Shown here: positions 30,801-62,700 of the stretch, in pieces
How positions within the stretch are numbered: position 1 is the stretch's first letter
Layout of the letters: each line of letters begins with the position of its first letter
Source of the DNA: Cyanophora paradoxa CCMP329
Taxonomy: Eukaryota; Plantae; Glaucophyta
Assembly (NCBI GenBank): GCA_004431415.1
Contig: QPMI01000011.1
Location: 41,909 to 105,908 of the forward strand
Length of the DNA stretch: 64,000 nt
Direction of reading: 5' to 3'
Made by a program: the position numbers and the translations under genes
The notes under the pieces: generated by a model
The model's database searches: none
What the model was told of the DNA's origin: nothing
The model's input: the letters and a program-made list of their open reading frames with translations, nothing else

Positions 30801-31217
30801 GCACTGCGCGTGCGCGTGCGCGCCGGTCGATCGCGCCCTCCCGGGGCGGGGCGCGGCGCGCGGGCGGCCCGAACCTGAGAGTAAGCGGCCATGATCTGCT
30901 CGCGCGACACCTGGAGGCCCGCCTTGGAGAGCTTGCACTTGTCCAGCTTCTCGGCCCAAGATACGAGGGCCTCATCGCCGCGGTGGCGCACGTCCTGGAC
31001 GATGCGGCGCACGCCCTCATCCACGCTAACTGGCTCCCCGAACAGCGCCTTCATGCCGTCCAGCACGCTCTGCGGGACCTTCCAGTCGTCCCATGCTTGC
31101 CTGCGTGGCGCGTTGGCGAGCGCGCGGGGGTGCGCCACGGCTTGCTCACCGCTTCAGGCACGAGGCCTTGGCGGTGGGCACGTCCAGGATGCGCAGCTGA
31201 AGCGCCTCGTCACCCAT
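27856..31217 (-). CDS. hisD: Histidinol dehydrogenase, stand-alone, intron-containing
   Basis: [63 protein letters not shown]|[25 protein letters not shown] and [10 protein letters not shown]; ATG 31217, TAG 27856. Confidence 0.95.
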
Positions 31218-42042: not shown

Positions 42043-42313
42043 AGTAAAATGCGGAGTTTTAACCCTCGGCTTATCTTAATTGATTTTGTTGATATATCTC
42101 GTATATTCTATTTCAATCAATCGATAATCTGTGTATATCTTATCGAATATTCAATTATTTCGATTATTTTGTATTCTTTTCGATATTTTATCTTAAATTT
42201 CTCTTATTTTCCGATTAGTCTTACTGAGTCTATCGATAATCTGTATATATTTCCGAATAATATAACTGAATCTCAATTAGATCTTGCCTCTGGTTAAAAC
42301 TCCGCATTTTACT
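42043..42313. repeat. Terminal 271-bp quasi-palindrome with perfect 22-bp inverted arms
   Basis: AGTAAAATGCGGAGTTTTAACC (42043-42064) is the exact reverse complement of GGTTAAAACTCCGCATTTTACT (42292-42313); inner patches pair on the same diagonal. Confidence 0.95.
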
Positions 42314-42571
42314 ATGTGTGATTGGTCTAAAAGTTAATTGATTTAATCGATATTATATTCATGTACTTTCTCGATTAAATTTAATTAAATTTAATTCATT
42401 TAATCGGAAATATATCGCTAAACTCGATTAAGATCCATAAAAGATTCATTTGTTAAATAAAACAAATCGATCTCTTATTGAATTCAATCGTAATTATACA
42501 TGAAATTGATATGTTATTATCATGTTTTAATGATTCTAAGGGGGGACCCTTAGGATTTTTGAAATAATTGG

Positions 42572-43032
42572 GTGTGACAGGTGTGACAGGTCTATCCCAA
42601 ACTTTTGATAGTTCATTTTTATGTTATAGAAAAGTTTGGGATAGACCTGTCACACCTGTCACACAAACCATATTCAGTAAGGATCTCTTTTAATGTTAAA
42701 ATTTCAGTGTTAGTTGGTGTAGTTGATTCACAAAATGCATCCTGTCACACCTGTCACACAAACCATATTCAGTAAGGATCTCTTTTATAATGAAAAACTC
42801 AGTAACAATAAGTAAGAAGTTTATCTATGTAATTCTACTTGAATAAACAAATGAAATAATCGAGTGTGACAGGTGTGACAGGTCCATCCCAAACTTTTGA
42901 GAGTTCATTTTTATGCTATAGAAAAGTTTGGGATAGACCTGTCACACCTGTCACACAAACCATATTCAGTAAGGACCTCATATATTGTGAAAATCTCAGT
43001 GTTAGTTGGTGTAGTTGATTCAAAAAATGCAT
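42572..43032. repeat. Iteron palindromes: 35-bp arms (GTGTGACAG)2-GTCTATCCCAAACTTTT around a 23-nt AT loop; full copies 42572-42664 and 42864-42956, half copy 42741-42759
   Basis: Arms 42572-42606 and 42630-42664 are perfectly complementary; the flanking AAACCATATTCAGTAAGGA is repeated three times. Confidence 0.95.
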
Positions 43033-43067
43033 TTATACTCTGATTCATTGTTATTTCCTGTGAAATT

Positions 43068-43496
43068 TGAGTCAACTCAACCCACTTAGTCAACCCTCCC
43101 ATTGAATTCGTAACAAAATCCATATACTTTTACTACTTTTACGATTAATATGAGTCAACCTTGAGTCCACTTAAATATAAATATAATATAATAGGGGGAA
43201 TGAAGGGGAGATGCTTATAAACATATGATTTATTGAGCCTATGATACTTACATAGTCACGCTGGTCTCGTTAAGAGGATTCCGAATCTGGTTTTATCTTT
43301 GTAAGATGATGCGTTGGTGAAGAGATACATGCATTTTAGTGTTTTGTGTGGGATTTCATGTTATGACGTCATAATGACGATGCATATGTATATGATATAT
43401 ATGACATACCACGTGACTCGGGAGATCATGACGATCACGGCGATATGTTCATTGTCGTGATGTATATGTATATATATGCGGTGCAATCTGATTGGC
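43068..43496. promoter_or_regulatory. Cluster of canonical eukaryotic TF motifs (AP-1 x2, CRE, E/G-box, inverted CCAAT)
   Basis: TGAGTCA at 43068 and 43151; TTATGACGTCATAA 43361-43374; CACGTG 43410-43415; CTGATTGGC 43488-43496. Function inferred only. Confidence 0.4.
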
Positions 43497-43502
43497 GGAT
43501 TG

Positions 43503-43625
43503 ATAATTCGTGGTAGAAACCACTAGCTTAATTATAATTCGTGGTAGAAACCACTAACTTAATTATAATTTGTGGTAGAAACCACTAGCTTAATTATAAT
43601 TCGTGGTAGAAACCACTAACTTAAT
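43503..43625. repeat. 4 x 31-bp tandem repeat, each unit with a GTGGT-AGAA-ACCAC mini-hairpin
   Basis: ATAATT(C/T)GTGGTAGAAACCACTA(G/A)CTTAATT read directly four times. Confidence 0.95.
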
Positions 43626-43643
43626 AACAAAGAGATTTAAACT

Positions 43644-43727
43644 GTTATTTTATAGGTTATTTTATAGGTTATTTTATATGTTATTTTATATGTTATTTTA
43701 TATGTTATTTAATATGTTATTTAATAT
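43644..43727. repeat. 7 x 12-bp tandem repeat GTTATTT(T/A)ATA(G/T)
   Basis: Read directly; the unit changes stepwise along the array. Confidence 0.9.
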
Positions 43728-43974
43728 GTTATGGATAATGTTGGGGGTATAGTGTATCTGTTATGGATAATGTTGATAAGTTTCGTCGAAGTTTCGGTAT
43801 TTCGATTGTCGGCATCTTCAAACGCTCGTATTTCATTACCAGATTACGAACTCGCAACGTTCTGCATAGCGTTGTGAAGCGCTTGATAAGCTCTACAAGA
43901 CTATGTGTATATCATGGGCATATATGTATATGACACATACATATATTTGGAAAAACGAGTTTTCGGCTATGAAA

Positions 43975-45360
43975 CTAGCTAGTTTTGGTCCTTTCTCTTA
44001 GTGTTCTTTGAGGTTTAGGGGCTGTATATGACTCCTTATTAGTCTGAAAGTCATTATACCATCTCTGGCTATTTACCTCAGAAAGTTTCTGTGTCCCTGC
44101 TATAGTGAGCTTTTTGAGTTCCCTATTAACCTTGCCAGTCTTCTCCTTTCTAGCCTGTATCAAAGGCTTATCTGGGACTTCATTAGCAGCTTCTATGCCT
44201 TCTCTCCTTATAGCAGCATCAACCCTGGCTTCCTCCTTGGCTTGCTCTAAGGCATCCACTGTAGGGGTTTCTAGATATTCAACTGCATTCACAGGCAACA
44301 GCTCATGGAAAGCAAACCTGTTATCTATGATCTCACCAGTGGGACTCCTTAGCTTAAACTTAAAGCCTTCCCTACTATCAACAGTGTAAACCATCCTAGA
44401 CCAATTGTTACCCTGTTTAGCAAAGGGGTTCTTCTCAACTTTCACTCTAACAAACATGCCAGGCTGCATGGTATCAAGATAAGCTATTGATTTCTTAAAT
44501 CTCTCATCTTCTAATCCCACTATATACCTATAATGCTCCTCTGTAGTTTCGCCTGGTTTCATCTTAGTAGCTGAGTGGACTGTATTATTGTAATTATACT
44601 CAATATCACCTAACACATCAAAGAATCTAGCTGTGTTATTAGCTATGCAGTAGTTTGTGATCAGTCTCTTAATCTGCTTGTTAAAGGCTTCAATTCGACC
44701 TTGGCTTCTGTGGTCTGCAGTTCCACTCACTTGGTGTTCTATGTATTTACTAGATAAATACTCCTGGAATATTCGATTTTGGAACTCACTCCCAGCATCT
44801 GATTGAACCTTTACTATGGGTCTTGCTACTCTCATCTCAAGCTGTTTAAATGCAGCCAATGTAGTGAGAGCTGATTTATCCCTTATAGGTATGATATACC
44901 CAGTTCTCAGTGTTGATTCCATTGCAGTCATAAATGTATCATAGCCATTGTTTTGTTTCTTATAAGCTGGGAAAAAGAGCAAATCAATCACATAGGTATC
45001 AAGGGGTTGCCTAATTGGGACCATGGGATCTCTCTTCCTAGATATAGCAGGTGCATTGATCTGAACTACCTCTTGCTTTTTATAGAACTCTTGCAACTGC
45101 TTATAGGATTCATCTGGTAACTCAGCCCTCATAGCTTGAAGCCCTTTGTAACCAGTTCTCACATCATAGAATCTCTTGGCAATCTTGCTGGTTTCTTTCA
45201 CTGCAATTGCAACTGGAATCTCTACTGGGACAAGTTCTTTCATCTCTGATTTTTTAACAATTCGAGATTCTCCCTTTTCCTCCTTTGGAACTGTGATAGG
45301 CAGTAGGTTACCTTGCAGTTGCTCAGTGGTTCTCCTAACTATTCTTCCAGTTGCTGGCAT
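43975..45360 (-). CDS. Retroviral-type (rve, DDE) integrase, Polinton type; intact
   Basis: YVIDL (D), VQSDAGSEF (D), GRIEAFNKQIK (E), YNNTVHSATKMKP, and C-terminal GMFVRV...NWSRMVYTV; 461 aa uninterrupted. Confidence 0.95.
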   Translation of the reverse strand: MPATGRIVRRTTEQLQGNLLPITVPKEEKGESRIVKKSEMKELVPVEIPVAIAVKETSKIAKRFYDVRTGYKGLQAMRAELPDESYKQLQEFYKKQEVVQINAPAISRKRDPMVPIRQPLDTYVIDLLFFPAYKKQNNGYDTFMTAMESTLRTGYIIPIRDKSALTTLAAFKQLEMRVARPIVKVQSDAGSEFQNRIFQEYLSSKYIEHQVSGTADHRSQGRIEAFNKQIKRLITNYCIANNTARFFDVLGDIEYNYNNTVHSATKMKPGETTEEHYRYIVGLEDERFKKSIAYLDTMQPGMFVRVKVEKNPFAKQGNNWSRMVYTVDSREGFKFKLRSPTGEIIDNRFAFHELLPVNAVEYLETPTVDALEQAKEEARVDAAIRREGIEAANEVPDKPLIQARKEKTGKVNRELKKLTIAGTQKLSEVNSQRWYNDFQTNKESYTAPKPQRTLRERTKTS

Positions 45361-45363
45361 CTC

Positions 45364-48300
45364 TTAATTAAAAGGAACAGAATTAATACCATCTGGTAAG
45401 ATGTATCTCTTTGCATCAAAGCAGTTCAGGGCAACCCTTCTACTCACAGTGTCTATTATTGTGTGATCTGCCCTTCTCTTCTGCTTGGCAGTCACAGTCT
45501 TGCTTATACCTGCAAATAAACACTGCTTAAAATCATTAAATTGGAGTTCCTCAGTTGAAGTCCCAGAGAGCTTACTTCTCTCAATCTCAGCAGTTCTGAA
45601 ACTGTAAACTTTGGCTCTCAGACCCACATATTCCAATATAGCAGAACCTGGCATCTCATTTTTGTATGATCTGCCCTTCTCTTCTGCTTGGCAGTCACAG
45701 TCTTGCTTATACCTGCAAATAAACACTGCTTAAAATCATTAAATTGGAGTTCCTCAGTTGAAGTCCCAGAGAGCTTACTTCTCTCAATCTCAGCAGTTCT
45801 GAAACTGTAAACTTTGGCTCTCAGACCCACATATTCCAATATAGCAGAACCTGGCATCTCATTTTTGTATTTACCTGGGGTCATTCTGTTAGATCCCCCT
45901 AGGTCCAAGGCATAAGATATATTCTCTATATCTTTTTGTAGGGTCTTAGATTCGATATATAGACAAAAGGAGTCAGTATCATGGAATAGTAACTTTGCTT
46001 TTGTCCATTGGGACCTTACAGTATCATAGAAGAACTTGTAGTTATGCAGTTTGGCTGCATCCAGAACATAAGCCCCAATAGCAACTGGCTTATCTAGCTT
46101 CACATGCTTTGTGTAAAACTCAAAGGCAACTGCTTTTTCGTTTATGGGACTTGTTGATTTCACCAATGGGGAGGCTGCATATTTCATAAACAGTTTCTCA
46201 CTGTTTGCAATCTTAACCACAGATCTACCTCTGCAAGATTCAATGCATTTCCCATAGATTGAGTTATTCATGAGTTTATAGAAATCAGCCTCGAATTTAT
46301 TCACTGCTTTCCTTCTCATCTCAGTATTCAGCTCAATGTAGGGTTTCATTACAGGAGCCACAGTAAATGATAGGACCCTGTGAACCTTCTTTAGTTTCAC
46401 CCCTTTGTCCAACAGATACTGTAGAAGAGGCTCAGAAATCACATAGTTGGTCACAGAACCAAAGGTTGCAGTTAGCTTAGGGGTCTTATCAAGCTCTTCT
46501 CCTGAGAGATCTAATAGGCTCTTTTGATATTGTGATAATTCTGCATATTCTACTATTTTCTTGTTAATAATTAGGGGGAAATCACTGTGGTCTAGATATA
46601 GCCTAATTGGGTAATCCAGATCAACTTCCAGGAAACTGGATCTGTTATCTTGTGGGTTGAATTCGGTCTCCCATCTAAAATCACCAACTGGGATTGGCTG
46701 ACTCAAACAGTAGCCATACAAGTTGTTAGCATCAAACAGCATTATATGGGAGTTCTCACCATCAGCCTCAGCATACCTACAAGGCATTGTTGCAAAGCCA
46801 CCCCTGATTCCCCTCTCAACAAATTCGTATTGCTCTACATCACTTATAAGCTCTATTTTTGCCTTGGTGGTCCTAAGCATAGCATCCCAAGATAACCCAG
46901 GTGCAGATACATAATGAACTGGGTCCAATCCATATACTGAGTGTGAAAGCCTTCTGAAAGCCTGGAATTTGCTCATTAACTCATCTACATCAGCAGCCCC
47001 AAAGTCCATAAAATTACTTGCATCAATGAACTTGTAAAGACCCCATTGCAATGAAAGGTATTGATCAAAGTTTTTCGAAAGGATTTCGATTCGCTTTTTA
47101 TCACCCATGCCTGCTATTTTTCTGAAAATGAATGTCCCACAGTCATCCATTTGGTCAACAACCACTGCTACTTTTGTTTGCTTTGAGATTCTCCTATGGA
47201 GATTGCAGTTTCTGCATGCAGGTGCAATGTAATTACCTGTGTGGTGATCATGATCCTGCATTTGAAGTTTTCCTTGGTGAACCTCTCACTGCAAAGGTAA
47301 CAGTGTTTGGTAGCTCTGTAAATAGCCTTTTGCTCATCTGTGAGTTCATTCATGGGAATATTGGTGAACAGGAAATCGATTAGCTCTCTTGCTTTGGACT
47401 CCAAGCATTCAAACAGACCTCCCATTGGATCCTGACCCTCAAATCGAAACTCCTGAACATCTGCCCCAGTGACTATTCTAATGTTGACTGCTGAGACTTC
47501 CCTCTTGGATTTCGATGCATCAATGGGGATGCTTCTATGTTCAATCTTGCAGTAAACCACAACAGGAAGCCAGACAGTTTTCCTGAGGTTTTTCAGTCCA
47601 AACTCTATTGTGGTGTCAGGCTTAGGGGTGATTCCCTTTGAGAGTCTCCAATCAATGCATCTGTTTGAGTCCACATGAGCAGTCAGTTTAGCCTCAGACC
47701 TGAATCGAGATAAGCATGTATCACAGTAGTGTAACTTTTGATCCTTGGTTTTATCAAGGGCAACTCTGAGAAGTCTTGAAAGGGACATGATTGTAATATA
47801 GTGACCATTCCCTTCATCATCATGAATGAGCATTAGATTAATCTTTTGCTTTCTGCCTGGGTTGCTGGATTGATGTAGGGGATATATAACATCTCGATCC
47901 ATTCCAAATATGTTTATGCTGATGCCTCCATTTTGAGATTCGAATTTATCAATGATTTCAGCATCACAGGCAACAGGGAATGAGATGTTATCGAAATTGA
48001 GAGCCAGAGGATTGTATATGGTCGGTGAGTATTTCCATTTGCGATATTGTGTAAGCTCACTTCTCTTGTGGGAATTTACATCTTTCCTATGGATCCATGC
48101 CAAAATGGCATTTTCAAAGCAAGAATCATCAATATTTCGAATATTCACTGTAGCTCTCTTGGCTGCAATTGATTCTGGTGTTTTAACATAGCAGCCACCA
48201 GTTGGGGCATAACTCATAATAGCAACTCTTAGCATTTCGATTCTCTCCAATCGATAGCTATCAACAACATTCATCTGTTCCTGACACATTTGGGCTGCTT

Positions 48301-48811
48301 TATTCAGCTCAGTTCGAATATTTCTCGATTTGGTTAATACAAAATAATCGCTGTAAATGTATTTCGATATCCAAACCTGCGGATTGCTGACTTTAACGAA
48401 CTTGCAGATAAACGACAAGCGAACTTTGATTGCCCTGAATTGATCCAGACTATCTCTTAAACGTTTTGGTAGAGAGGTTGCAATTCTATCTAAATATTCA
48501 ATCACATCTACCACAACTTCCCTTCTGGCTCTGTATGTGAGCCAGCGATATAATTCATTCATGGCTGTTCCATCTTCTGCCTCTGGTTCTATTTGCCTCA
48601 GGCGATCGAGTTCATCAAGAGTCTCAACTTTATCATAGAGGTTATTGGCTTTTCTGGTTAATTTGGACAAAGTGGGTCTCCCCCTTGAAATAAATCCGAT
48701 TTCCCGGTCATATTCAGCCTCTGTGATTTCATGGGCTGCATACAGTGTTCCCAGTAATCCCATGAGTTCCCATTTCTTCTCTTTAATGAGTCTGTTGCTA
48801 ATTCGGGGCAT
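45364..48811 (-). CDS. Protein-primed-type family B DNA polymerase with N-terminal TP/vOTU-like region and EndoVII insert; split by a 1-nt deletion (~47255) and a 203-bp 3' duplication
   Basis: Polymerase motifs DANNLYG, KLMNNSIYGK, HDTDS, GKYKNE, GLRAKVYS and FDAKRY; LDPVHYVSAPGLSWDAML; CYLC...DHDHHTG...CRNCN; NIRNIDDSCF...GHY. Likely start MPRISNR at 48811. Confidence 0.92.
45464..45870. repeat. Perfect tandem duplication, period 203 bp, in the pPolB 3' end
   Basis: TGATCTGCCCTTCTC starts at 45464 and 45667; the peptide YKNEMPGSAILE...RRADHT appears in both ORF pieces. Confidence 0.95.
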
Positions 48812-48909
48812 TGTTCCTAACTTGTTCCTACTAAAAGGGGAGGTTTTAAATGGGGATAGTCCAAACGCGAAAATACTATATTGTATATATATAGAAGCAA
48901 AATAGCAAA

Positions 48910-49228
48910 AATGAATCCGGAAAGTCAAAGAACGCTAGAAATTTCAGCAATCCTGAGAAACATTAGAGAAAGGAATGCAACCTGTGAAAACGCAGAGTAT
49001 AAACGAATTCTATGCAGTTTATGTAAATGTGATGAGACAAGCTATGATCAGTTTGTGTGTGATCAATGCTTTACGACAGTCTGTATAGGGTGTATGAAAC
49101 AGCAAGAGGAAATAGTCGGGAATACAAAATGCCCATTCTGTAGAAACACATTACAGTATCCAGAGTTCACCTTGTTCAACATTCTGGACTACAATGCATG
49201 TGATGTGGAAACAATTACATTTGGCTGA
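48910..49228 (+). CDS. Small RING-finger (all-Cys C4C4-like) protein, putative E3 ligase
   Basis: CSLC-x11-CDQC-x4-CIGC-x12-CPFCR; ATG at about 48910. Confidence 0.7.
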
Positions 49229-49284
49229 GCAACAAAAAATGATTTAAAGAATTCTCTATATATATTAAGAGAGACAGAGGAAAA

Positions 49285-49539
49285 ATGCCACTCAGTGAAG
49301 CCCAGAAGAGAGCTATGAAGAGATACCAGCAAACTGAAAAAGGTAAGGCTCAAATCAAAAAGTTTAACGAAAAAATAGCCACACAGCTAAGAGATCTATA
49401 TCAAACCGATGATACCTATAGAGCAATGAAAATAGCAAGTTCATGTCAGCGAAAGTATGCAGCCAATGCAGTCTGCTTTGTCAAGTATTTGTATGATGTC
49501 CCTTACTCAAACAGAGGGAGAAAATCGAAACATGTCTAA
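49285..49539 (+). CDS. Small basic hypothetical viral protein
   Basis: MPLSEAQKRAMKRYQQTEKGK; preceded by an AT-rich promoter-like motif shared with the next gene. Confidence 0.6.
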   Translation: MPLSEAQKRAMKRYQQTEKGKAQIKKFNEKIATQLRDLYQTDDTYRAMKIASSCQRKYAANAVCFVKYLYDVPYSNRGRKSKHV

Positions 49540-49751
49540 ATTATTTTTCCCAGCATATTACTAGGCTGGGGATATGCTGTGTATTCGCTGAAATACCCAT
49601 TCATCCTTTTTGTATCTAAACCACTCGATATATCATGTGGATAAATTTCGTAGGGATACTTTCTCGATTTCCAACAAAAAATGATTGGGGGACCCAAAAC
49701 TACTTAAAGAAAAATCTTCTATATATATAAAAGGGACCCCGATCGCTGAAA

Positions 49752-52078
49752 ATGAACGCCAAACAGACTAAATCGCTCAAATCGCTCGCTAACTGGCTCA
49801 GATCTGATGAGGAACTGTCCAAAAACATGATTATCCCAGTGAAACCTGACAGCAAAGACCCTGTTTTCAAGCATAAGGGAGGTGCATGGTCCTGGGAAAA
49901 GTATGAGGAAGCGCTGGCAACTAATCAGTATGTATCTTGGGGCATTCTGCTCTCAGACAACATGATGGTTATTGACTTTGATGATGAGGAGGACTTTGAG
50001 AAATTCCGGGATATGTTTCCTGATGACTTTGATGCCAATCAGCCCATGGCAAAAACTAAAAAAGGCTATCATGTCTACTTTAAACGACCTGAGGAGTTCA
50101 ATAAACTCAAAATTACCGATAAGGCTCCTGGCTTTAAAGGCTTTGAGAAGGTTGACCTGAAAACAATCACTGGAACTGGAACTTCTGGACTGATCAATGT
50201 GTGTCCCAGTGTGAACAAGGCTTGGGTAATCTCCCCATGGGATGATACCTGTGATTTCAATGAGCCTACTGATGACTTCAAAAAGTGGATAATAGATAAC
50301 TACATCTATAAGAGTGAGTATACTGCTAATGCTACCTCACATGATGAACTGGAAAACAATATTATCAAAGAGCTGGTGGATATGGGATTTATGCATCCCA
50401 ATATAATCTCTAAAACTGAACTTGGCTTTAACTTTGATGCTGCTAACAAGGGACTCAATTGCCCATGCTGCAATGGTTCACATGAATCGAATAACTGGTA
50501 TGTTATGAAAGCTAAAGGAGATGATAACAAATACATTGTGTCAAGCTACAGTGGAAATTGCAAAAAACGATTCATCTGCATTGGAATGCAATCTGATATC
50601 TTCAATCTTATAGATAAATCCGCTGGTTCTGGTGGCGCTCATTATGATGTGAGTTTAGTATGCAAAGAGGTTCTTAAACATACATGGAGATACTCCAAAA
50701 AGTCATGGTTCAAACTCAATACTGATACTGGGATTTGGGAGCATGATGACACAAACCTAAAGATTTACCTAGATATAAGCCGTCTTGTTGTCCCCAATAC
50801 CTTGGAAGGGCTGTGCATTATAGTCAAAGAGCTTTAAAGGATGAGGAAAACAAAGCAGCTTTCGAAGAAAGATCCAAAACATTGATGACCATTGCCAAAA
50901 ATCTTAAACAATCAGGATTTCGCAAATCCCTTCTGACTGACTTGGTCCCACTGCTGAATGATGATGAATTCTTTGAGAAGATTGACACAGTTCCATATGT
51001 GATTGGATTCGAAAATGGTGTATTTGATCTGACCACTATGACTTTCAGAAAGGGTAAACTGGAAGATATGGTGAGCAAGACTGTGGGTTATGACTATACT
51101 GAAAATGTAGACCCCAAGAAAATAGAGCATCTCAATCAGATTTATAAAGAGATTGTGGATGATCCAGCAGAGCGAAAGTATCTTCTGGCATCCATTGCAA
51201 TTGCCCTTAGTGGATCAACTAAATCCCAGAAGTTCTATATGTGGACTGGTGCTGGTGCTAATGGTAAATCACTTGTTCAGGAATACTGCAAACAGATATC
51301 TGGTCGCTATTACAGCCCTCTCGAAATATCCTATTGGACTAAGCCTAAAAAGAACTCATCAGAGGCTACTCCTGAACTTGCCAAACTCCTTGGAAAGCGA
51401 CTTGTATTCAGTAATGAGGCTGAAGATGGTGATAAACTGCAGATCTCCAAGATTAAGGAGGTCACAGGTGGAAATGAAATGACTGTGAGAGCCTTGTTCA
51501 AAGACCCAGTTATCCTTACCCCAATGTTTCAGGTCTACATTACAACTAATGACAATTTGACTATAAATAAACCAGACTTTGCAATTCAAAGAAGACTTTC
51601 CTATCAGAGATTCAATAATATATTCAGAGAGAAGCCAGAAGCTGGTCAAAAGAAAGCTGACCCAACTCTGTTCACACTTCTACACAATGATGATGAGTAT
51701 AAGATGGCTCACATGAAGATATTACTGGATATGTGGAAGAACAAAGAGGTTGAAGAGATCTTAAGAAGTCCCCCTCAATCGATTATTGAACAGGGAATTA
51801 ACTTTATAGCTGAAAATGATAAGATTGGTGAATGGCTTCGAGATAATTTCGAGGTTACACATAATGCTAACGACTTTGTTTCCAGTGATATCATTTACAA
51901 ATCATACAAAAGTGTTGATGATAAAGTTGAATGTGTATCTGTTATGAAAAGAGTAAGGGAGATCTTCAATGTTAAATCAGAAAGAAAACGAGTTAATGGT
52001 ATTCTTGCCAGAGGATATATTGGGATTCGAAAGATAACAAGGGTTCAGGAAGACAATGAAGATGATGCCGAATATTAA
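49752..52078 (+). CDS. Prim-Pol (AEP) primase - Zn finger - D5-like SF3 helicase fusion; one frameshift at ~50796
   Basis: VIDFD and TKKGYHVYF (AEP motifs); CPCC...H...C; IGFENGVFDL (D5_N); Walker A GAGANGKS; LVFSNE; IKEVTGG; TNDNL...AIQRR. Adding one A at ~50796 joins both ORFs. Confidence 0.9.
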
Positions 52079-52119
52079 AGAAAACGATTAATGATTGAGA
52101 TTTACATATATTTTTATAG

Positions 52120-52240
52120 CCTTACTGAAAATGGTTTGTGTGACAGGTGTGACAGGTCCATCCCAAGGAAAGCCCTGGTGAAAAGTTGATTTTCAAAATC
52201 GATGGGATAGACCTGTCACACCTGTCACACCTGTCACACC
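52120..52240. repeat. Internal copy of the iteron palindrome right after the helicase stop (candidate origin)
   Basis: (GTGTGACAG)2GTCCATCCCA ... TGGGATAGA(CCTGTCACA)3 with a different spacer; CCTTACTGAAAATGGTTT is the near reverse complement of the terminal flank. Confidence 0.9.
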
Positions 52241-53118: not shown

Positions 53119-53140
53119 GTCTCTACTAAAACAGAGATAA

Positions 53141-53903: not shown

Positions 53904-54686
53904 TTATAAACCGCGTTTATATCGCATCAATTTATTGCTATGGACTTGGCTTTTCACTTCTTTAGGGGCTTCCTCTTTTTCTGGTGGTTTCAGTTCATCT
54001 TCTTTCTTCTTGGGCTTCCTGTGGAAGTGAGGAAAATCGAAATCTCCAACTAAATCGGCTTTATCAACATAGTAGCCCACATTATACTTGAAAGATGTAT
54101 AAACAAGGAACTGGTATGAGTGGACATACTCTTCAAACAGTTTATAGAAATCTTCTTTTCGAGGAAATGTCGAAAACTCCTCTGCAAATGCTTCCAGCTC
54201 TTTTTGATTGCTTGCACAAACCATAATTACTATATCACTATTGCAGCGAATTACACTTGCAACCTTTCGTAATTTCTGAGAGATAGTTATTATTGATATA
54301 TTCACATGTCTGCCACGAACATAAAGCATTCCAACTGTTTTATCTCGACTGAGATCCAGCTGGTCATTTTCTATCATATCCTCTAAAATCACCAGCATAT
54401 GGTTAAGTTCTTCTCCTTTCTCCCTTTTTGCCTCTCTTTCTTTTATAATTTTCGACATGTATTGGGGATCCCATGCACCCAGTTGAACAGTAGCAGCTTT
54501 GTCCCAGAAATGTGAGAATGAGGTAGCGGATATAATAAGGGTTGTATCAATCTTTTTGGCATCATGCAGCTGTTTCAAATAATATTTTACGGCTTCAGTT
54601 TTTCCGCATCCACTTTTACCTAGTATGAGTAGTCTGAAAGGGGGTTCTATCATTTCACCAGCATTAAATTCTTCCAGATCTTGCAT
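53904..54686 (-). CDS. A32-like (FtsK/HerA) DNA-packaging ATPase
   Basis: LLILGKSGCGKT (Walker A), LVILEDM (Walker B), RGRHVNISIITISQ and IRCNSD; likely start MQDLEEF at 54686. Confidence 0.93.
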   Translation of the reverse strand: MQDLEEFNAGEMIEPPFRLLILGKSGCGKTEAVKYYLKQLHDAKKIDTTLIISATSFSHFWDKAATVQLGAWDPQYMSKIIKEREAKREKGEELNHMLVILEDMIENDQLDLSRDKTVGMLYVRGRHVNISIITISQKLRKVASVIRCNSDIVIMVCASNQKELEAFAEEFSTFPRKEDFYKLFEEYVHSYQFLVYTSFKYNVGYYVDKADLVGDFDFPHFHRKPKKKEDELKPPEKEEAPKEVKSQVHSNKLMRYKRGL

Positions 54687-56103
54687 TGTTGTATATCTTT
54701 CTAAATAAGTACAGATAAAAATAATGCAGAGAGACTGAATTAATTCTGCGTAAACCATCTTTGTCGACAATAAGGAAACTATGCATGAGAGCGCGAACAT
54801 TAACATCAATTGTCTTATCTGAAGGCATGTAGAGGGTGAGGAATGAAGATGAGGAATTTGTCAGGTCAACAAATCCACTTTGAGCAATATTTCGAATTGC
54901 CTTTTCTCCATCAAGGCAGAATGGGAGTCCTGAAAGGACATAGCGATCAGCAACCTTATCCATGTTAGAGCATTTGAAGGCATCAGCAATTAGCTCAGCA
55001 CCTTTGAGTAGGGAAATTGGCTCAGTGGCAAAAAGTCGCTGTCCATTTATTTCAGTTGTGAATGTGATGTCTTTGGAGTTGGCATAGGTCTTAAGAACAC
55101 TGTGGGAGCCATTGGATTTGTCAACAGTTTCATGATCACGAACTGAAACAAGCAGAGCATATACAAGACCTGAGATTTGAGAGAGGTTAATTCGATTGGG
55201 TTGGGCATTGCCCTTGGCAGGGAAAGCACTAGCATCTACAAATCCAATATCAAGGGAGGGAATAGCCATGCCAGTTGTCTTAACCTTTTCAATGACAGTA
55301 GCGAAAAGCTCATCAGAAACATTAATAGCATGCATGTAAAGGCGAGGAGAAGTAATAGAAATAACAGGAGTTGTTGCACCAAGACTGAAAGTTGTGATAT
55401 TTTGACCAACATGGGCAAGTGTGGCATTAGCAGTATCACCAAGACCATCATCTTCTGTCTTATCAGCAACTGTCCCACCAACAACAGGGAGAGAGCGACC
55501 ACCATAGGAAGTTTCAACATAACCCTTTCCAGCATCCTTAAACCAAACAGTAACAACCATTTCACCAGATAAAGCACCAAGGGGAAGGTAGTGATTTAGC
55601 CAAGGCACAGGGATTTCAACAAAGAATGAGCCACCAAGGCGGTTGGTTCCATGAGCAGGGATGCCATGAACCATGCCCATTGATCGCTTCTTTTTAGCTA
55701 GTTGATCCTCCGAATAATAGACCAGGGGGAAATGAGCAAGGAAATCAGATGGAATATGGTAGGTGTAAGATCCATAGGTAATTTCAAGTCGCTGAACTAA
55801 AGCACCAACTGGGCGAGTGTATCCATTGCGAACTAGGTCAGTATCACCAGCAAACGTGATGGCTGGAAGGTCGAAAGCAAGTTCGAGTTTTCCACAGAAA
55901 TTGTAGCGAGGTAGCTTGAAGGAAATGCGATTTCCAACATTATTCTCAAAAGTATTGCTGGGATTCACAACAACTAGAACTGGCTTAGATTTGGATTCGA
56001 GACCAAGCATAAGGGAGTTATCCAGGAAAAAGGCTTTCGCCTCTTCTGGGGTTGTTAGGGCTTCTTTCAGCGAAAGTCTTTGAAGAGTGGAAGTGATATC
56101 CAT
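54664..56103 (-). CDS. Double jelly-roll major capsid protein (true stop probably near 54740)
   Basis: About 455-480 aa, beta-rich: GNRISFKLPR..CGKLELAFDLPAI, VGALVQRLEITYGS, FFVEIPVPW...YLPL, PRLYMHAINVS and VRALMHSFLIV. Sits between penton and ATPase; start MDITSTL 56103. Confidence 0.85.
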   Translation of the reverse strand: MDITSTLQRLSLKEALTTPEEAKAFFLDNSLMLGLESKSKPVLVVVNPSNTFENNVGNRISFKLPRYNFCGKLELAFDLPAITFAGDTDLVRNGYTRPVGALVQRLEITYGSYTYHIPSDFLAHFPLVYYSEDQLAKKKRSMGMVHGIPAHGTNRLGGSFFVEIPVPWLNHYLPLGALSGEMVVTVWFKDAGKGYVETSYGGRSLPVVGGTVADKTEDDGLGDTANATLAHVGQNITTFSLGATTPVISITSPRLYMHAINVSDELFATVIEKVKTTGMAIPSLDIGFVDASAFPAKGNAQPNRINLSQISGLVYALLVSVRDHETVDKSNGSHSVLKTYANSKDITFTTEINGQRLFATEPISLLKGAELIADAFKCSNMDKVADRYVLSGLPFCLDGEKAIRNIAQSGFVDLTNSSSSFLTLYMPSDKTIDVNVRALMHSFLIVDKDGLRRINSVSLHYFYLYLFRKIYNNARSGRI

Positions 56104-56155
56104 TATATTCTCTTTTATTATACTGCAACATAAAAATCTACCAATGATCCTTAAT

Positions 56156-57164
56156 TTATGCGAAGTTTGTAATAACTGGATAGGAAGGGTGAAGCTGTGA
56201 CATTCGCATCTTGAAGTATTCATAAACTGGGTCCCCAGCTGGCTCATCACCATAGCGAATTTCAAAGGTAAGATGAACAGGTTGACCCTCAAAATCAATT
56301 GGTTCATTAATAGCATTTACAATATCAACCGAGAAAGTGGATAATCCAACCTTTTATTATAGTATTTGTAAAGTGGGTGAGCTTCTGTTGAATTGTAAAC
56401 AACATGCTCACCATAGTCTTTATCAGGGACCACTATTTTGTGAAAGTAACCAGTCAGAAGACCATCCCCACATTGCACCAGATCACCCAGCTCCTTTACT
56501 CTCACAAACAAAACACTGTCCCTGGTCTTCTCAGGCTCAAAAGAAGATATAATGCCATTCACGCGACCACCAGTAAAGATTCCATCAGTGAGAGCATCAT
56601 AGACCTGTGATTGGATTGGGGAGTTACCATATCTTCCAGGATCAAGACCCAGCAGTCTAGCGGAACTCAACAGCTTTTGGATTGTTTGTTGGCTTGGGTT
56701 CACAGCTACTGAGAAAGCCAAGTACAATGGTACTGCTGAGTGGAATATAATTCGTTTCAGTGATTCATCCCATTTGCAGCGAATGGATGGTTGGGGATTT
56801 CTGCCTTCGAATTTAGAGTTAATTACATTCACCAGTTGCTGGTGGCTTTGGATGGGGGTGTTTCGACTTATAATGAATTGTTTCCATTGTTCATAGTCAG
56901 CAGCTGGGCGAACTGTTGGAATTCCTGAGCTTCCAGCTCCAGGAGTTTGTTCAGAATAATAAATGCTAAATGCATTGTCAACTGTCACATCTCCTGCTTT
57001 GGTTTCACCACTCACCATAGGGATACTGTTATAAATTCGGCTGAGACCAGTCTCACAGCCCTCACATTCTCATAACTACTGGGGAGTCTAGCCACAAAGC
57101 TTGATGTGGGACCATCACCAGAGATTGTATTAAATGAGCTAACCTCGATGTAATCCACAGGCAT
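56156..57164 (-). CDS. Minor capsid (penton) protein 1; frameshifts near 57030 and 56335
   Basis: Reconstructed N-terminus MPVDYIEVSS...SFVARLPSSYENVRAVRLVSAEF; LFVRVKEL; C-terminus VDIVNAINEPIDFEGQPVHLTFEI, typical single-jelly-roll penton ends. Confidence 0.75.
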
Positions 57165-57193
57165 TCTTCTTTTATCTATATTTATATATTAAA

Positions 57194-58124
57194 ATGAACC
57201 GGCTCGTTAATATTGATAGCAGGGATAGAAGCCAAGGACAAAATGAAAACTCTTACAGGGTCACCCTCACAACTCCAGTAGAGAGACCAAGGGAATGTAG
57301 GGTTCTCTATGCAGAGATTCCAAACAGTATCTATAACAGTGTGGGAACTGATCATCTAACAGTTCAGTTTAATTACCAAGATGGTTCATATAACCAAGTG
57401 ATCACACAACAAGTGTATCCCTTCCCAGTGGCTACATCAATCAGGGTCATTTTGGGGTCACACACCCTTATAATTATGGGCTGAACTATTCAAGCTTCCA
57501 AACTATTGCAGGCAAAACAGTAGCTTTTGAGTTCAAGATATTCTACAACCCAACAACCTATAAAGTGGAGTTTTACAGTAACCATGAGTTTCGTTTTATT
57601 GCAAGCAACCAGAGAATAGGAAAGCTTTTGGGTGTAAGTTCTACTGAATACACCACTGGGTATTATAGCACTCCTCCTGTTGGTGGATCTCCCTATCGAC
57701 CTGAGAACCTTTTAAAGTATGATGGCAAACCTATTACACCTGATCACCCAGCATGGGGAATCACCTTCTCAGGACCCAGACTCTCCTCTAAGCCCTTGCA
57801 ATATTATTTTGACAGCAGGAAGATGTCTGATATGAATGCTGAGCAGTATCTGTACATGCATATTAAAGAGCTGTCCCCTTTGCCAGCAGACACAATATAA
57901 TTCCAAAATCGCAACCACAAAACCAGGGAGCTATCCTTAGATTGCAATTGAGTAAAGATATAGGGGGCTATGTTTACCATAGTGGTGAACATGCAGAATT
58001 TATTCAAATCAATGACAGAAACCTGGTGATAAGGGAACTCACTGTGGAGTTTAAAGATTACTTTGGTGAACTGATTGATATGAATGGAATCGATAATTCT
58101 TTTCAGTTGGAGTTTATCGAATAA
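57194..58124 (+). CDS. Minor capsid (penton) protein 2; in three frameshifted pieces
   Basis: MNRLVNIDSRDR...YRVTL...VLYAEIPNSIYN; IGKLLGV; YLYMHIKEL; ELTVEFKDYFGELIDMNGIDNSFQLEF. Confidence 0.8.
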
Positions 58125-59670
58125 AGGCACCTGTAAAGTCAACTCTCATTGTGGGAGCATTCACATACACAAGGGGATAAATGCGAATATATCTTATTCT
58201 CAGAGAATAACCTATGTAAAAAGCATCCTTGATGCTGAGAGGGAACCCACTCAATAGAGCCACATCACCAGAGTTGTGAGCATTGTTAATGTTCTCACAG
58301 ACATATATTTTGTTTTGCCCATCTGATCGAATAAAAGACCAGTTGATCCCATCAGTGGATGTTGCCACATTGAAAGTCTTAATAAAAGCATTGGTGTCCC
58401 CTGATCCATAGGCAATCACAGAGGAGAGTTCAAAAGTATATGGAAAAGCAACTTGAAGGTATTCAGTGGGGGTTTCCCATATCTGTTCAGGAGCATAGGC
58501 TCCAGCTTCCCAGCCAAATGCTGAAGGTCTAGCCATGAAAGGCTCTTTACCTGTCACAGAGGATGAGGCAGTAAAGGCATCATCTGCAAGCTGATACCAA
58601 TTGGCATCCAAAGGAGGTGATGTAGTGAGAGTGGATGAAATGTAAGCCTTTGAAGGGTTCTTTAGTTCATAGTTTGCTACTAGAAGGCTGCAAAGCTTAT
58701 TGATCATATCATTGTTTGCTGCAATGTATGTTTCAGTGAATGCAAGCATGTCTGGGATCTTAGATGTGTCATCCAGGGAGCTTACTATATGATTTGGAAG
58801 AGGGACTGATAACCTATAGTATCTCCCATAATCCTGATCATAGTTGTAGGGTAAAAGCTCCTCCATTTTATCAAGGGCAGAAAGCTCACTTGCAGCCATG
58901 AGCATGTTAATCAATGGGCTTCCATCTGTTGAGGCAATCCATGAGAGAATACCCCAGCTGTTTACAGTCTCATAAGCATAACCCACATAATCAGACTCTA
59001 AATGTGGGTCTACCTCACCACAAGAGATGCTTATTACTATAATATCATCATCATCACTGTAAATCTTCTTTGCATGGCTGTAACCACACACACTGGGATT
59101 ATTGTTTCCCGAAATGGCACCATCAATAAGACAGACATATACTCCCCGATTGAAATCAACAATGCTTACAGGAGAGAAATATGTAGGAGCAGCAGAAGTA
59201 GCCCTAGCAGCAATCTTACAAGGCATAAAGTTGTAATTGTTGTCATTTGTGATAAATATTGGTTTCATATTCTGAGTATCAAAGGATGTGATCACAATGT
59301 CCTTAAGGGAATCCTGTATTAGTGATTCACCAGTAACTGAATTGATTGCAGTCTCCAAGGGTCCCACATCATACTTTGTGTTAAATAGGGCATTTTCAAT
59401 GATATTTCGAGGATTTGCGAAAATCAAGGGCAGTTGAGTTAGGTAAATATTGTGTAAATCGTTTGCTGTCAGTTTAGGTTCACCTGGTTTATCAGGATGC
59501 CTGATGTTTAACCCAATAGCAATGATCCCACCAGTGGAAGTTCCACTCACAAGATCCACAAGATCGATTATTCTCCTGCCAGTTCGATTTTCGATTTCTT
59601 TGAGCAGCCTGGTTATGATAATGCCCCTTGCACCTCCCCCTGACAAACTGAGAACTACTTTGAGAGGCAT
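58114..59670 (-). CDS. Patatin-like phospholipase fused to a C-terminal discoidin (F5/8 type C) domain; intact
   Basis: LSLSGGGARG, GTSTGG, ATSAAPTYF and IDGA (patatin); EYLQVAF...FIKTFNVATSTDGINW...RYIRIYP...TMRVDFTG (FA58C). Confidence 0.9.
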   Translation of the reverse strand: MPLKVVLSLSGGGARGIIITRLLKEIENRTGRRIIDLVDLVSGTSTGGIIAIGLNIRHPDKPGEPKLTANDLHNIYLTQLPLIFANPRNIIENALFNTKYDVGPLETAINSVTGESLIQDSLKDIVITSFDTQNMKPIFITNDNNYNFMPCKIAARATSAAPTYFSPVSIVDFNRGVYVCLIDGAISGNNNPSVCGYSHAKKIYSDDDDIIVISISCGEVDPHLESDYVGYAYETVNSWGILSWIASTDGSPLINMLMAASELSALDKMEELLPYNYDQDYGRYYRLSVPLPNHIVSSLDDTSKIPDMLAFTETYIAANNDMINKLCSLLVANYELKNPSKAYISSTLTTSPPLDANWYQLADDAFTASSSVTGKEPFMARPSAFGWEAGAYAPEQIWETPTEYLQVAFPYTFELSSVIAYGSGDTNAFIKTFNVATSTDGINWSFIRSDGQNKIYVCENINNAHNSGDVALLSGFPLSIKDAFYIGYSLRIRYIRIYPLVYVNAPTMRVDFTGAFIR

Positions 59671-59713: not shown

Positions 59714-62700
59714 ATGAGCTTCAATTACCCACCCAATCTAGAAACCATTCAAGATGATAATGCAAGCAGCACCAAGCATGTGAACTTTGATAATATTAAA
59801 GTAAAGGGTTCAGTTTCAATTGACCACAGCTCTGATAATTCATCAAAGACTCAATCAAGGGAGCATGCTTTATCTGTGAATCAAACCGATCCAGATAAAG
59901 AGGATGTCAGTGTTGCTTTTAGTTTGGGTAATGTGAAAGCAAACCAAGTGGCAGAGATCAAAGCCACCAGAAGGAGACCTAGGAAACTGAAAACCAGTGG
60001 CACTCACCCAGATATACCTTCCAGGTTCGATAGTGGTCGATTGATTTTCAATGTTCAAGATGAGCAGGGCAAACAGAACACAGCTTTACGAATTTACAAT
60101 GAGGGCAGCACTGCAAAAGCTGAGGTCCCCAAGTATTGCAAGTGGGTCCATTGCCAATACAAATCAGGTCTCCTACACAAATGATGTCTACCCCAAGGAT
60201 ATTACATATGACTTTGCAAGAAATGAGCCTTTTGGTTCTTTACTCCAAAAGATGTCCATCAAAAAAAGCCATCAATTACAATCAACAGTAGCCCAGTCAA
60301 CCAGTAGCAATCCATTTGCATCCTGATTTAGTCGAAATGGATAGGCACCTTTTGCCTTTGTATAGCAATGTGAAAGACCTTGGAATTCGAACCAGGCAAT
60401 GGCGAAATATCCATGGCAGCAATGTGTATGCAAATGGAGAGAAGCTTGTTAGTGAGAAAACTCTAAGGGAAATCATTGAGCATTATGGTCCCAATGGACC
60501 TACTGTCCCATTCCCTATTCCATTTCCCAATGGACCACCCGATCTAACACCAAAGAAGCAGCCTGGAAGAGAATACACAGCAACTGAAGATGTAGCCTTT
60601 GGGCAGCATATTGTGAGTTGGGAGCAAGTTCGCAATAAACCTATAATTGAACCCAGAAAGCAAATAGATGAGCAGTATTTACCTCCTGAAGTCGATATAT
60701 TAGAGCTTGATGAATATCAATTCGTTCCAGATGAGGAAGAGTATTTACCAGATGGTTTCGACCCACAAGAGTATGAATATGATCAATATGACCCCAATGA
60801 GGAGGAAATATTACCAGATGGCTTAGACCCACAAGAGTATGAGTATGAGCAGAACTATGAACCCCATGAGGAGTATTTAGCAGATGGACATGATCCACAA
60901 GAGTATGAGTATGAGCAGAATTATGAACCACATGAGGAGTATTTAGCAGATGGTCATGATCCCCCAGCTGTTGACTATGAGCAACCCCATGACCCCCATG
61001 AGGAACTGTTACCAGATGGTTTGCAACCTGAGGTTTTCGAGATCTTCCCTGACTGGGAGCAAATAAACAATAAACCAGCGAGATATCCTCCAGAGGACCA
61101 CAATCATGACTGGGATGAGATCTTAGGCAAACCACAGAAATACCCACCAGAAGACCACAGGCATGATTGGGGTGATATTGATGGGATTCCAGATAAGTTT
61201 GCAGCAAGCAACCATGAACACACCTGGGATGAGATCAATGACCAACCAGAATTTGCAAAAGTTGAGCCTCTTGCTACTCTGGGAGTTTCTCTTTACCAGA
61301 CTTGCAATGTCCCTGAAAGGATCTTTTTGAATCACCACTATGTTCATGTGAATGGGACACTTGCGAATTCAGCTATGAGAGGACCACTTCATATTAGGAC
61401 ATTACCAGGCTCTTATAATCCACCACCTGAACCAGGAGCAACCATACCAAATATCTTTGTGTCAAGCTACATGGAGGCTGACATTCCCACAGATACATTC
61501 AGAGTCCCAACAGACCCAGCAACCTACCAAAATTACAACTCTGCTATACAGGTTCATGTAGCAGATGTAAGCAGTCTAGATGGATCAAGACCAATGATAG
61601 TTTTCAGTCGAGATAAATATTCCTATATTCCCATAGTGGGAACTGCAAATGATAACTATGGAAGGGCAGAGCTTGCATGGATTAAAACAAACTATGGTGG
61701 GGTTCTGGAAGCCAATCAGAGGATGGCTGCAAAGAATATTCACAATGAGACTATTTCGAGAGTGGTCACAGAGGATTATTAGAAGAGCAAGGATATATTG
61801 ATGAAGGTGAATTAACAAACATTCTTTCTCTTTTTGTGATCAAAAATGACACAAACCTTACAGTCACAAGTAACATTTTCACCAGTAACCTTTATACAAG
61901 TAACATTTACACCAGTAATCTATGGGCAAGCAATATTTACGGAAGTAATCTAGAAGTCGACTATTTGACTGTGAATATTGCAGCAAATCTACCAAATCAT
62001 CCTACATCCAATGTAGTTTTAGGTTGGATCGACAACCACACCCACACAAAAGATGAAATAACAGATTTTGCACATGAGCAATTTATGGGAGCATATAACA
62101 AATCCACATTAACATTCCCTCCCAGTTCCCATGGGCATTTATGGGAGCAAATCGTAAATCCACCATTAACTTTTCCACCTGATCCACACAGTCATGATTA
62201 TTCCCAGATCACCAACTGCAATCACAGACACCCTTGGAGTGAAATCGATCAACAACCAGTATTTGCACTGTTGAATGCGATTGGAAATGCGATTGGAAAT
62301 GTTTTCAATGGAGTACACTTTACCAATCCAGTAATACACCTGAAAGCTTTTTTGAATGATCATTATGTTAGTCTCAATGGGACTTTTACAGGTCAAACAG
62401 GAACCCCAATGGTGGGAACTCTTGCAGTAAGATTACCCAGGGATCCAATTGTTAATGGAGTTTATGATGGCATTTTAATGTGGAGTTAATGATACTTTCC
62501 CAGTATCTATGTAACGAATTATCACCCAGGAGAAACAGGACAAGTAGCCAATTTTTCAGCAGCAATTCAAGTTAATGTAACAGATCAAGACCATATGATG
62601 GAGCAAGACCTAAAATCGTGTTACAAGGGAGAAAGGTAAACTACCTTCCAGTTGCAGGACAACCCACAGATGATCATGGTAAATGTGAGATGTCCTGGAT

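Follow-up and report, generated by a model that had tools for sequence, protein, structure and literature searches.

A 64,000-nt stretch of contig QPMI01000011.1 from the glaucophyte Cyanophora paradoxa CCMP329 (GCA_004431415.1, positions 41,909 to 105,908; hereafter the window, whose own numbering is used below) contains the left end and ~22 kb of an element that, judged by its sequence, is a multi-copy integrated Polinton-like virus (PLV). Its replication genes combine a primase-helicase gene followed directly by iterons, very likely the origin on which this protein would act, with a pPolB polymerase whose exonuclease (Exo) region is eroded and whose terminal-protein (TP) domain appears to be retained. 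We propose a hybrid route, in which synthesis would fire from the iteron origin and the linear ends would be completed by TP-primed synthesis, and we give this reading a probability of roughly 0.45. The element starts at base 42043, at a step in mean GC content from 69% (bases 1-42042) to 39% (42043-64000). A GC content of ~40% persists to base 64000; the element continues past the window, with its right end beyond that base. Contigs from three DNA-type runs covered all 30 bins of the element at a depth far above that of the flank and with many variants and, although contig depth is not copy number, for these reasons we regard it as a multi-copy family. The features that bear on replication are as follows.

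42043..42313: left terminus, with an AGT start and a 22-bp fold-back stem round a 227-nt AT-rich loop (GC step, fold, repeat search)
42560..43032: subterminal iteron units, two palindromes and a half unit, predicted origin (repeat search)
45364..47258, minus strand: pPolB 3' part, with eroded Exo II-III and intact motifs A, B, C, TPR1 and TPR2 (Pfam, alignment, fold)
47259..48811, minus strand: pPolB 5' part, with TP domain, vOTU, zinc fingers and dead Exo I (alignment, structure model)
49752..52078, plus strand: Prim-Pol, Cys/His motif and D5-type superfamily 3 (SF3) helicase, one gene (Pfam Prim-Pol, D5_N, DUF5906)
52096..52240: inverted copy of the subterminal iteron unit, predicted cognate origin (repeat search)

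Iterons behind a primase-helicase gene

An initial annotation, made from the letters alone, had described iteron palindromes at the end of the element and behind the helicase. Both were recovered, and an 18-mer of the iteron occurred eight times in the window (0 expected, 100 shuffles). Palindromes of facing 9-bp repeats lie at 42572-42664 and 42864-42956, with a half unit at 42741-42803. The inverted copy at 52096-52240, in two facing sets, starts 18 nt past the helicase stop, and inverted copies of the unit mark both limits of the segment 42572-52240. Facing short repeats directly downstream of a primase-helicase gene, the arrangement of origins of the Staphylococcus aureus pathogenicity island (SaPI) and phage type, were thus present. 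In SaPI and staphylococcal cassette chromosome mec (SCCmec) elements, the origin iterons are described as lying directly downstream of the helicase gene (PMC7581432).

Scanning a 19-mer of the iteron against viral contigs returned 25 loci, in 13 of which the repeat stood beside a helicase or primase-helicase gene. This included 10 loci with the 19-mer at most 450 bp from the 3' end of a DUF5906, VapE-like, D5_N or AAA_25 helicase gene (most of these genes also carry a primase domain), two with it ~2 kb downstream of a Prim-Pol/AAA_25 gene and one with it inside an open reading frame (ORF) preceding a DnaB-type helicase. As three near-duplicate pairs occur among the 13, they represent ~10 independent cases. 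All 12 loci with the 19-mer in both orientations fell among the helicase-adjoining ones; the other 12 of the 25 had one orientation only and, where one neighbouring ORF was scanned (several loci), none was a helicase. One helicase-adjoining locus, L046, shares the architecture seen in the window (Prim-Pol, D5_N and DUF5906), and the 9-bp unit is identical in several phage contigs. Given this recurrence beside helicase genes in 13 of 25 contigs, the iterons are, by analogy, very likely the origin of the Prim-Pol/SF3 protein, and we infer from SaPI Rep and Cch2 that the helicase would bind them. A control 19-mer gave six loci, none with both orientations; this control was not clean, since it shares a 5-bp core with the iteron.

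Among annotated phages, the internal iteron unit matched 13 records, 12 of them in primase/helicase genes and all from Microbacterium phages; these overlap the viral contigs (two have the lengths of the L038 and L052 contigs) and so are not independent of them. Six annotated phage D5-like genes were also inspected: three were followed by facing sets of other short repeats, one weakly and two not. A full-text literature search (heptamer with primase, origin, phage) returned no such origin by title or start of abstract. The 9-bp iteron follows varied primase-helicase families in L033, L034, L036, L038, L043, L046, L048 and L055, whose helicases are SF3/DUF5906, VapE-like or AAA_25 and whose primases are Toprim, PriCT-2 or Prim-Pol. 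One iteron behind such different families suggests a shared DNA-binding domain or a convergent origin sequence.

The primase matched Pfam Prim-Pol at 26.1 bits (cut-off 22.8) and carries the DxD (49968-82), HxY (50064-81) and third Asp (50151-62) motifs. The claim of a primase with intact archaeo-eukaryotic primase (AEP) motifs was therefore borne out, with the correction that primase and helicase form one gene split by a frameshift, residues 280-346 of the first ORF already belonging to the D5-type region. The primase domain itself is like those of phage Prim-Pol clusters; a giant-virus-like primase domain was considered and rejected, as giant-virus matches cover residues 280-346 only. The best viral relatives of the helicase were 77 loci at 26-36% identity, mostly giant-virus-type D5 proteins of ~890 aa (39 of 64 parts scanned), and its best solved-structure match was African swine fever virus (ASFV) C962R. 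In the helicase tree (43 rows; 15 dropped for failing the Walker A pattern, viral set thinned, and no PLV, poxvirus or asfarvirus rows), the window sequence joined L150 (100/98, with a long-branch warning) on the giant-virus side, and phages stood apart (95/90); the tree gives no direction of transfer. The L150 contig (bases 1-9950) forms a single perfect palindrome of 4975 bp, each arm of which holds three ORFs: a methyltransferase-like and a tyrosine-recombinase-like one (both by eye, with no Pfam match) and a PriCT-2/D5 primase-helicase. Either a small replicon with hairpin ends or an artefact of assembly could explain such a contig.

The co-occurrence of the primase-helicase with such a polymerase, which the initial annotation had raised, was scored by Pfam among 111 related pPolB loci (42 of at least 10 kb). 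None of their 210 ORFs of at least 230 aa matched Prim-Pol or D5_N, and one matched DUF5906 below the cut-off; the pairing with Exo loss is therefore not the background state. The sole related locus with a weak SF3-type (DUF5906) ORF, L060 (3461-4192, minus strand), has a pPolB that keeps the Exo I and II motifs.

The polymerase and its terminal-protein domain

The pPolB of the element was compared with 23 full-length relatives and 178 added rows (201, some duplicated between collections). The Exo I Asp, present in 88 of 108 covered rows (16 gaps), is Lys in the window (47540-47554). Exo II, HNxxGYD in relatives, reads DQMDDCG (47136-47165), with Asp and Gly at the places of a His found in 162/164 rows and an Asp found in 162/165. 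Only the Exo I Glu and the Exo III Asp (Exo III at 46974-47003) remain. The distance from Exo II to YxLD is 74, against 152-295 in 145 rows. The Exo II-III region, with 77 residues against 171-298, was 0.21 identical to relatives, in comparison to 0.43 ± 0.04 (0/23 as low), and was the only region outside the relatives' range; vOTU, palm, TPR1 and TPR2 were inside it or at its low edge (vOTU identity 0.31 against 0.35; TPR2 region 107 residues against 107-112). All pPolB domains were slightly more diverged than average. As read from the alignment, this pPolB has lost Exo I and II plus ~100 residues, unlike nearly all of the 201 relatives, and it departs from the canonical TP-vOTU-Exo-palm layout with Exo I, II and III. 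The reported lack of proofreading motifs was thus confirmed, as was VVDSY in place of xGSxW in the TP region.

All polymerase catalytic Asp residues are kept, motifs A, B, C, TPR1 and TPR2 are intact, and Pfam DNA_pol_B_2 was matched. The best fold match of the 3' half was phi29 polymerase (E 1e-16, against 4e-7 for poxvirus polymerase); the polymerase is phi29-type, and not the nucleic-acid-primed PolB of Nucleocytoviricota.

The TP domain lies at 48209-48430, with the VVDSY loop at 48254-48268. This loop keeps Ser185 and Tyr186, the Ser standing one place before the Tyr (shifted by one), and 3/23 relatives also have no Ser at the usual position. In canonical pPolBs, the linking Ser or Tyr is described in the alpha2-beta4 loop near a Gly/Pro, and PRD1-like TPs match the little finger of Y-family polymerases (PMC11161782). 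The TP region was modelled, as had been suggested at the outset. In the model of the 5' half (pLDDT 82), the helix-loop-strand topology of a TP appears to be kept, with VVDS between helix 162-181 and strand 186-200 and Ser185 in the loop. Its viral matches were adintovirus and MELD pPolB, and in the PDB it met Y-family polymerases over ~120 columns, none at E <= 0.001. The catalytic Cys (48110-48130) and His (47789-47809) of vOTU are kept.

No pPolB relative above 41% identity was found; the metagenome scan covered 11 of 64 parts, and one of its two patterns is absent from the window's own protein, such that it may have passed over close relatives. When viral contigs were scanned with single proteins (primase, pPolB 5' part, capsid), no usable locus was returned, and the pPolB 5' part had no match among longer proteins, which is weak evidence. 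Two proteins, P0050 and P0075, have C-terminal halves of pPolB type and, in place of the Exo I-II region, an unrelated domain at the N terminus with motifs that, by eye, recall family A polymerases.

Left terminus, variation among copies and other genes

Bases 42043-42064 are the perfect reverse complement of 42292-42313 (22 bp). The 271-nt terminus folds at -35.7 kcal/mol (z -7.4; 0/200 shuffles equally good); the 227-nt spacer by itself does not fold (-12.3 against -8.4 ± 2.6, 60 mononucleotide shuffles), and for this reason the fold-back is a stem-loop and not a fully paired hairpin. The fold-back terminus of the initial annotation is therefore real, in this form and for the one end that the window contains. 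Poxvirus terminal hairpins are almost fully paired. Set against that form (PMC8956199), which characterises hairpin-ended Nucleocytoviricota, this end of the element has no such hairpin. The AGT start recalls vertebrate Mavericks, which are described as ending in (AGT)2 or (AG)3 (PMC8097293), and L064, a relative bearing terminal inverted repeats (TIRs), starts AGTAGT. The terminal 22-mer had 0 matches in viral contigs. Perfect inverted repeats of at least 18 bp, 40-420 bp apart, occurred somewhere in 14/111 related loci, where contig ends need not be genome ends. Two further observations concern this region: eight copies of TCGAT fall within the element's initial 520 bp (42121-42470), a density of ~15 per kb compared with 1.4 per kb elsewhere, and bases 42314-42571 fold better than shuffles.

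In this copy, pPolB is frameshifted near 47255 and the primase-helicase near 50790-50830. Contigs of runs X1, X2 and X5 have a one-base indel at both sites (pPolB rows at 47254-47255), so that other copies are in frame at both breaks; the frameshifts seen here are either mutations or assembly errors. The 3' end of pPolB holds a 203-nt tandem duplication (45455-45860, two differences between units); contig depth drops to roughly half there, which would follow from a single unit in other copies. Summed contig depth in X1, which is not copy number, was 18-37 thousand over most of the integrase and pPolB against 7-11 thousand over the primase-helicase. The terminus 42043-42559 was present in one X15 contig, with nine other letters. 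None of 15 contig joints showed a strand change at the terminus; contigs drop rare forms. Decay of the exonuclease private to this copy was considered and rejected by reasoning from X1, as the motifs differ at most codons, yet 2505 of 2734 X1 contigs are at least 90% alike; no second copy showed the deletion junction itself. Loose ends at 43097, 43173, 43217 and 53134 are common to runs, and here other copies continue into different sequence. The one at 43097 (three runs) may be an inner TIR edge (~1.05 kb) or mark a subfamily, and that near 53134 is a possible module boundary ahead of the structural genes.

The other genes and repeats of the element are listed below.

43503..43732: tandem arrays of 31 bp (4 copies) and 12 bp (7.5 copies) (tandem-repeat search)
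43975..45360, minus strand: rve-type integrase, 461 aa, acidic triad present (Pfam rve E 1.4e-4, below cut-off)
48881..49539, plus strand: two small ORFs, the first Cys-rich and RING-like by eye (no Pfam family at cut-off)
53904..54809, minus strand: A32-type packaging ATPase (Pfam Pox_A32 E 9.6e-14)
54664..56316, minus strand: probable capsid protein, a lead only (Atlas look-alikes)
58114..59670, minus strand: patatin-like phospholipase with F5/8 type C domain (Pfam)
60316..64000, plus strand: fibre-like repeat genes (PHROG tail-fibre matches)

Homologs of the rve integrase adjoin pPolB in related loci (E to 2e-38). The tandem arrays are missing from some other copies (contig joints 43446-43802 and 43456-43804), and the two small ORFs are deleted in one variant (joint 48856-49696). 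The candidate capsid protein resembled Capsid_N/Capsid_NCLDV in the Atlas (0.97) with a recognition of 1827, under the mark of 2300, hence a lead only; it had no Pfam or PHROG match and no relative among viral contigs. Sputnik_MCP, the virophage major capsid family, had no match at E 0.1 in the element, and virophage loci L018, L025 and L030 do match it. Among the 26 ORFs of the 22 kb in view, beyond which the element continues, Pfam recognised no maturation protease or minor capsid protein, and no resolvase or nickase. The fusion of patatin and F5/8 type C domains stands within the structural module, and related loci have PLA2-like or F5/8 domains instead. The fibre-like genes include an acidic 66-bp tandem array (60736-61004) and a duplicated 96-bp segment (61669-61764 and 62687-62782), and several of these ORFs, as well as 57143-58124, appear frameshifted. 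In the host flank, we noted a histidinol dehydrogenase gene with several exons (29326-31153, minus strand; 3 of 98 scanned ORFs, of 124 listed), which points to a non-animal host because animals lack this pathway, and a coiled-coil gene with an internal duplication (9204-9755 and 11189-11737, ~1985 bp apart, 92-97% alike).

Replication models and related systems

Under the hybrid route, the facing 9-bp repeats would be the loading site from which the helicase would melt the DNA, the primase of the same protein would start synthesis, and pPolB would elongate and probably still complete the linear ends with its own TP domain. The primase-helicase gene may have arrived with its origin, which would then have been copied into the subterminal region, and the helicase may have relaxed selection on the exonuclease, as published for mavirus and PLVs. 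Forks fired from the origin would leave a 3' overhang, which the 271-nt fold-back might structure in the manner of end patching in Streptomyces. This last step and continued priming by TP are the most uncertain parts of the model. The initial annotation had proposed a move from TP to primase or origin priming: the half of this that concerns a primase-helicase with an iteron origin beside an Exo-dead pPolB agrees with our data, and a departure from TP is less probable, given the TP fold, vOTU dyad and TPR1 that are kept and the Ser and Tyr in the altered loop.

Several results weigh against the hybrid route. None of the 77 nearest helicase relatives, mostly giant-virus D5, has facing repeats behind the gene, and protein kinship and origin type therefore do not match. 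Two of the six control loci (duplicates) sit 130 bp behind a P-loop ORF that has no Pfam family. The TP loop is shorter than in relatives, has Asp where 20/23 have Ser (two before the aromatic residue) and is without the Gly/Pro of 19/23; the identity of the TP core, at 0.12, is at the low edge (relatives 0.15 ± 0.02), and the structure model leans to the relatives' fold because it was built on their alignment. The depth over the primase-helicase, ~1/3 of that over pPolB, is a weak hint that many copies may lack the cassette or differ in it. No close relative from another host was found.

These points bear on three other explanations. The altered loop would suit a loss of TP priming, with the 3' end self-priming on the internal 22-bp copy in a parvovirus-like manner, or the primase alone priming, and pPolB extending DNA primers in the ordinary manner. 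Pairing in the stem reaches the final base without a mismatch, such that a folded 3' end would be flush and extendable, the fold-back is kept in another copy, and a model of this kind has been put forward for those Halocafeteria elements that have terminal palindromes (10.64898/2026.07.28.741278). We nevertheless consider this unlikely: TP fold, vOTU dyad and TPR1 are kept, Ser and Tyr are still in a loop whose usual Ser is also missing from 3/23 relatives, Pfam recognised neither a resolvase nor a nickase in the 22 kb in view, and the Halocafeteria palindromes go mainly with non-pPolB elements. The hairpin-primed replication of the initial annotation fares no better, given the short stem, the unpaired loop, the open AGT-type end and the single end in the window.

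A replicon replacement under way, in which a mobile primase-helicase and origin invaded the end module and use host polymerases while pPolB decays from the exonuclease outward, would be in line with the inverted iteron units bounding 42572-52240 and with the slight excess divergence of every pPolB domain. Such a route was proposed by Barth et al. 2024, who describe a copy of a TIR repeat behind the end module of Gezel-14T (PMC11296320), and the Halocafeteria preprint terms pPolB and D5 pairs transient states (10.64898/2026.07.28.741278). This is improbable for the present element: no polymerase Asp has been lost, the Exo domain alone leaves the range of the relatives, other copies keep the frame where this one breaks it, and contig depth over pPolB exceeds that over the helicase instead of falling below it. 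A mavirus-like arrangement has little probability as well. Here, replication would be protein-primed from the ends, with the helicase only unwinding for an Exo-less pPolB, the primase-helicase and its repeats an optional cassette, and the fold-back an end-duplication by-product or a unit like a miniature inverted-repeat transposable element (MITE). Mavirus and PLVs are published cases in which an exonuclease was lost and a helicase gained (PMC11161782), depth is lower and deletion joints occur over the cassette, and 14/111 related loci hold comparable perfect inverted repeats. Against this stand the intact primase motifs, the 2.5 repeat units at the terminus besides those behind the helicase, which match phage origins, and the 0/210 ORFs with Prim-Pol or D5_N among the 111 pPolB loci.

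Much of the element is familiar. An rve integrase beside pPolB, an A32 ATPase and an AGT end are shared with Polintons/Mavericks and adintovirus/MELD elements (Krupovic et al. 2024, PMC11161782); the pPolB palm is 36-41% identical to theirs, and adintovirus and MELD are its top fold matches. Unlike in these elements, Exo I and II are dead, ~100 residues are deleted, the loop is altered, and a Prim-Pol/SF3 gene and iterons are added. Mavirus-like virophages and pPolB-S1H PLVs (PMC11161782; PMC13215967) have likewise lost the exonuclease in the presence of a helicase and kept TP and vOTU. In those, most of the Exo domain is gone, whereas here a remnant persists in another pPolB type with both motif C Asp residues, a primase is present, and the virophage capsid family is unmatched. 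[quoted passage not shown] Their palindrome is 52 nt (screen gap of at most 10 nt), in contrast to the 22-bp stem and 227-nt loop here; the main text of that preprint does not contain the word exonuclease and we saw no iterons described there, and its supplements may hold a closer case.

Facing short iterons directly downstream of the helicase are shared with the primase-helicase origins of SaPIs and other phage-inducible chromosomal islands (PICIs), SCCmec and phages (PMC7581432; L034, L036, L046, L214, L215, L219). Unlike in these bacterial systems, the helicase is nearer to giant-virus D5 and the origin unit also lies near a linear end. As a working analogy for the ends, Streptomyces linear replicons have an internal origin, a ~300-nt 3' overhang with terminal fold-back and TP-primed patching by a non-replicative polymerase (PMC4513846); their TP is different, Tap is absent here, and homology is not claimed. 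With Nucleocytoviricota, the element shares a helicase 26-36% identical to giant-virus D5, a best structural match to C962R and, as a lead, capsid features like those of nucleocytoplasmic large DNA viruses (NCLDV); it differs in its phage-like Prim-Pol primase domain, phi29-type polymerase and end that is not a fully paired hairpin. The resemblance of helicase and capsid protein to giant-virus ones may reflect kinship with Nucleocytoviricota, and nothing in these proteins shows ancestry. An intermediate between Polintons and hairpin-ended Nucleocytoviricota, as first suggested, is unsupported, the polymerase being a phi29-type pPolB with a derived loss.

Earlier publications already cover exonuclease loss accompanied by helicase gain, the pairing of pPolB and a D5 primase-helicase, and terminal palindromes for which hairpin priming was modelled. 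A giant-virus scenario has included Polintons that carry D5-like primase-helicases since 2015 (PMC4405056), inverted repeats have been put forward as the origin for PLV primase-helicases together with a replacement model (PMC11296320), and the AEP-S3H combination is described as common in PLVs (PMC12220804, PMC10120064, PMC12721341). In the literature reached, which included few subscription papers, neither a PLV with a phage-type iteron origin nor an Exo-dead pPolB of this type came to our notice. The element may be a snapshot of the change from protein to primase priming, a PLV that took a phage-type iteron origin with its primase-helicase and fires internally, its pPolB demoted to a proofreading-free finisher of ends on a fold-back 3' overhang, with or without a working TP; in this full form the view is doubtful. 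By itself, the element does not bear on giant-virus ancestry. How PLVs with primase-helicases start replication, and how priming shifts from protein to primase, have rested on gene content alone in the literature reached; the present element supplies a candidate origin sequence that is matched independently in phages, together with a further, apparently independent, half-way loss of the pPolB exonuclease.

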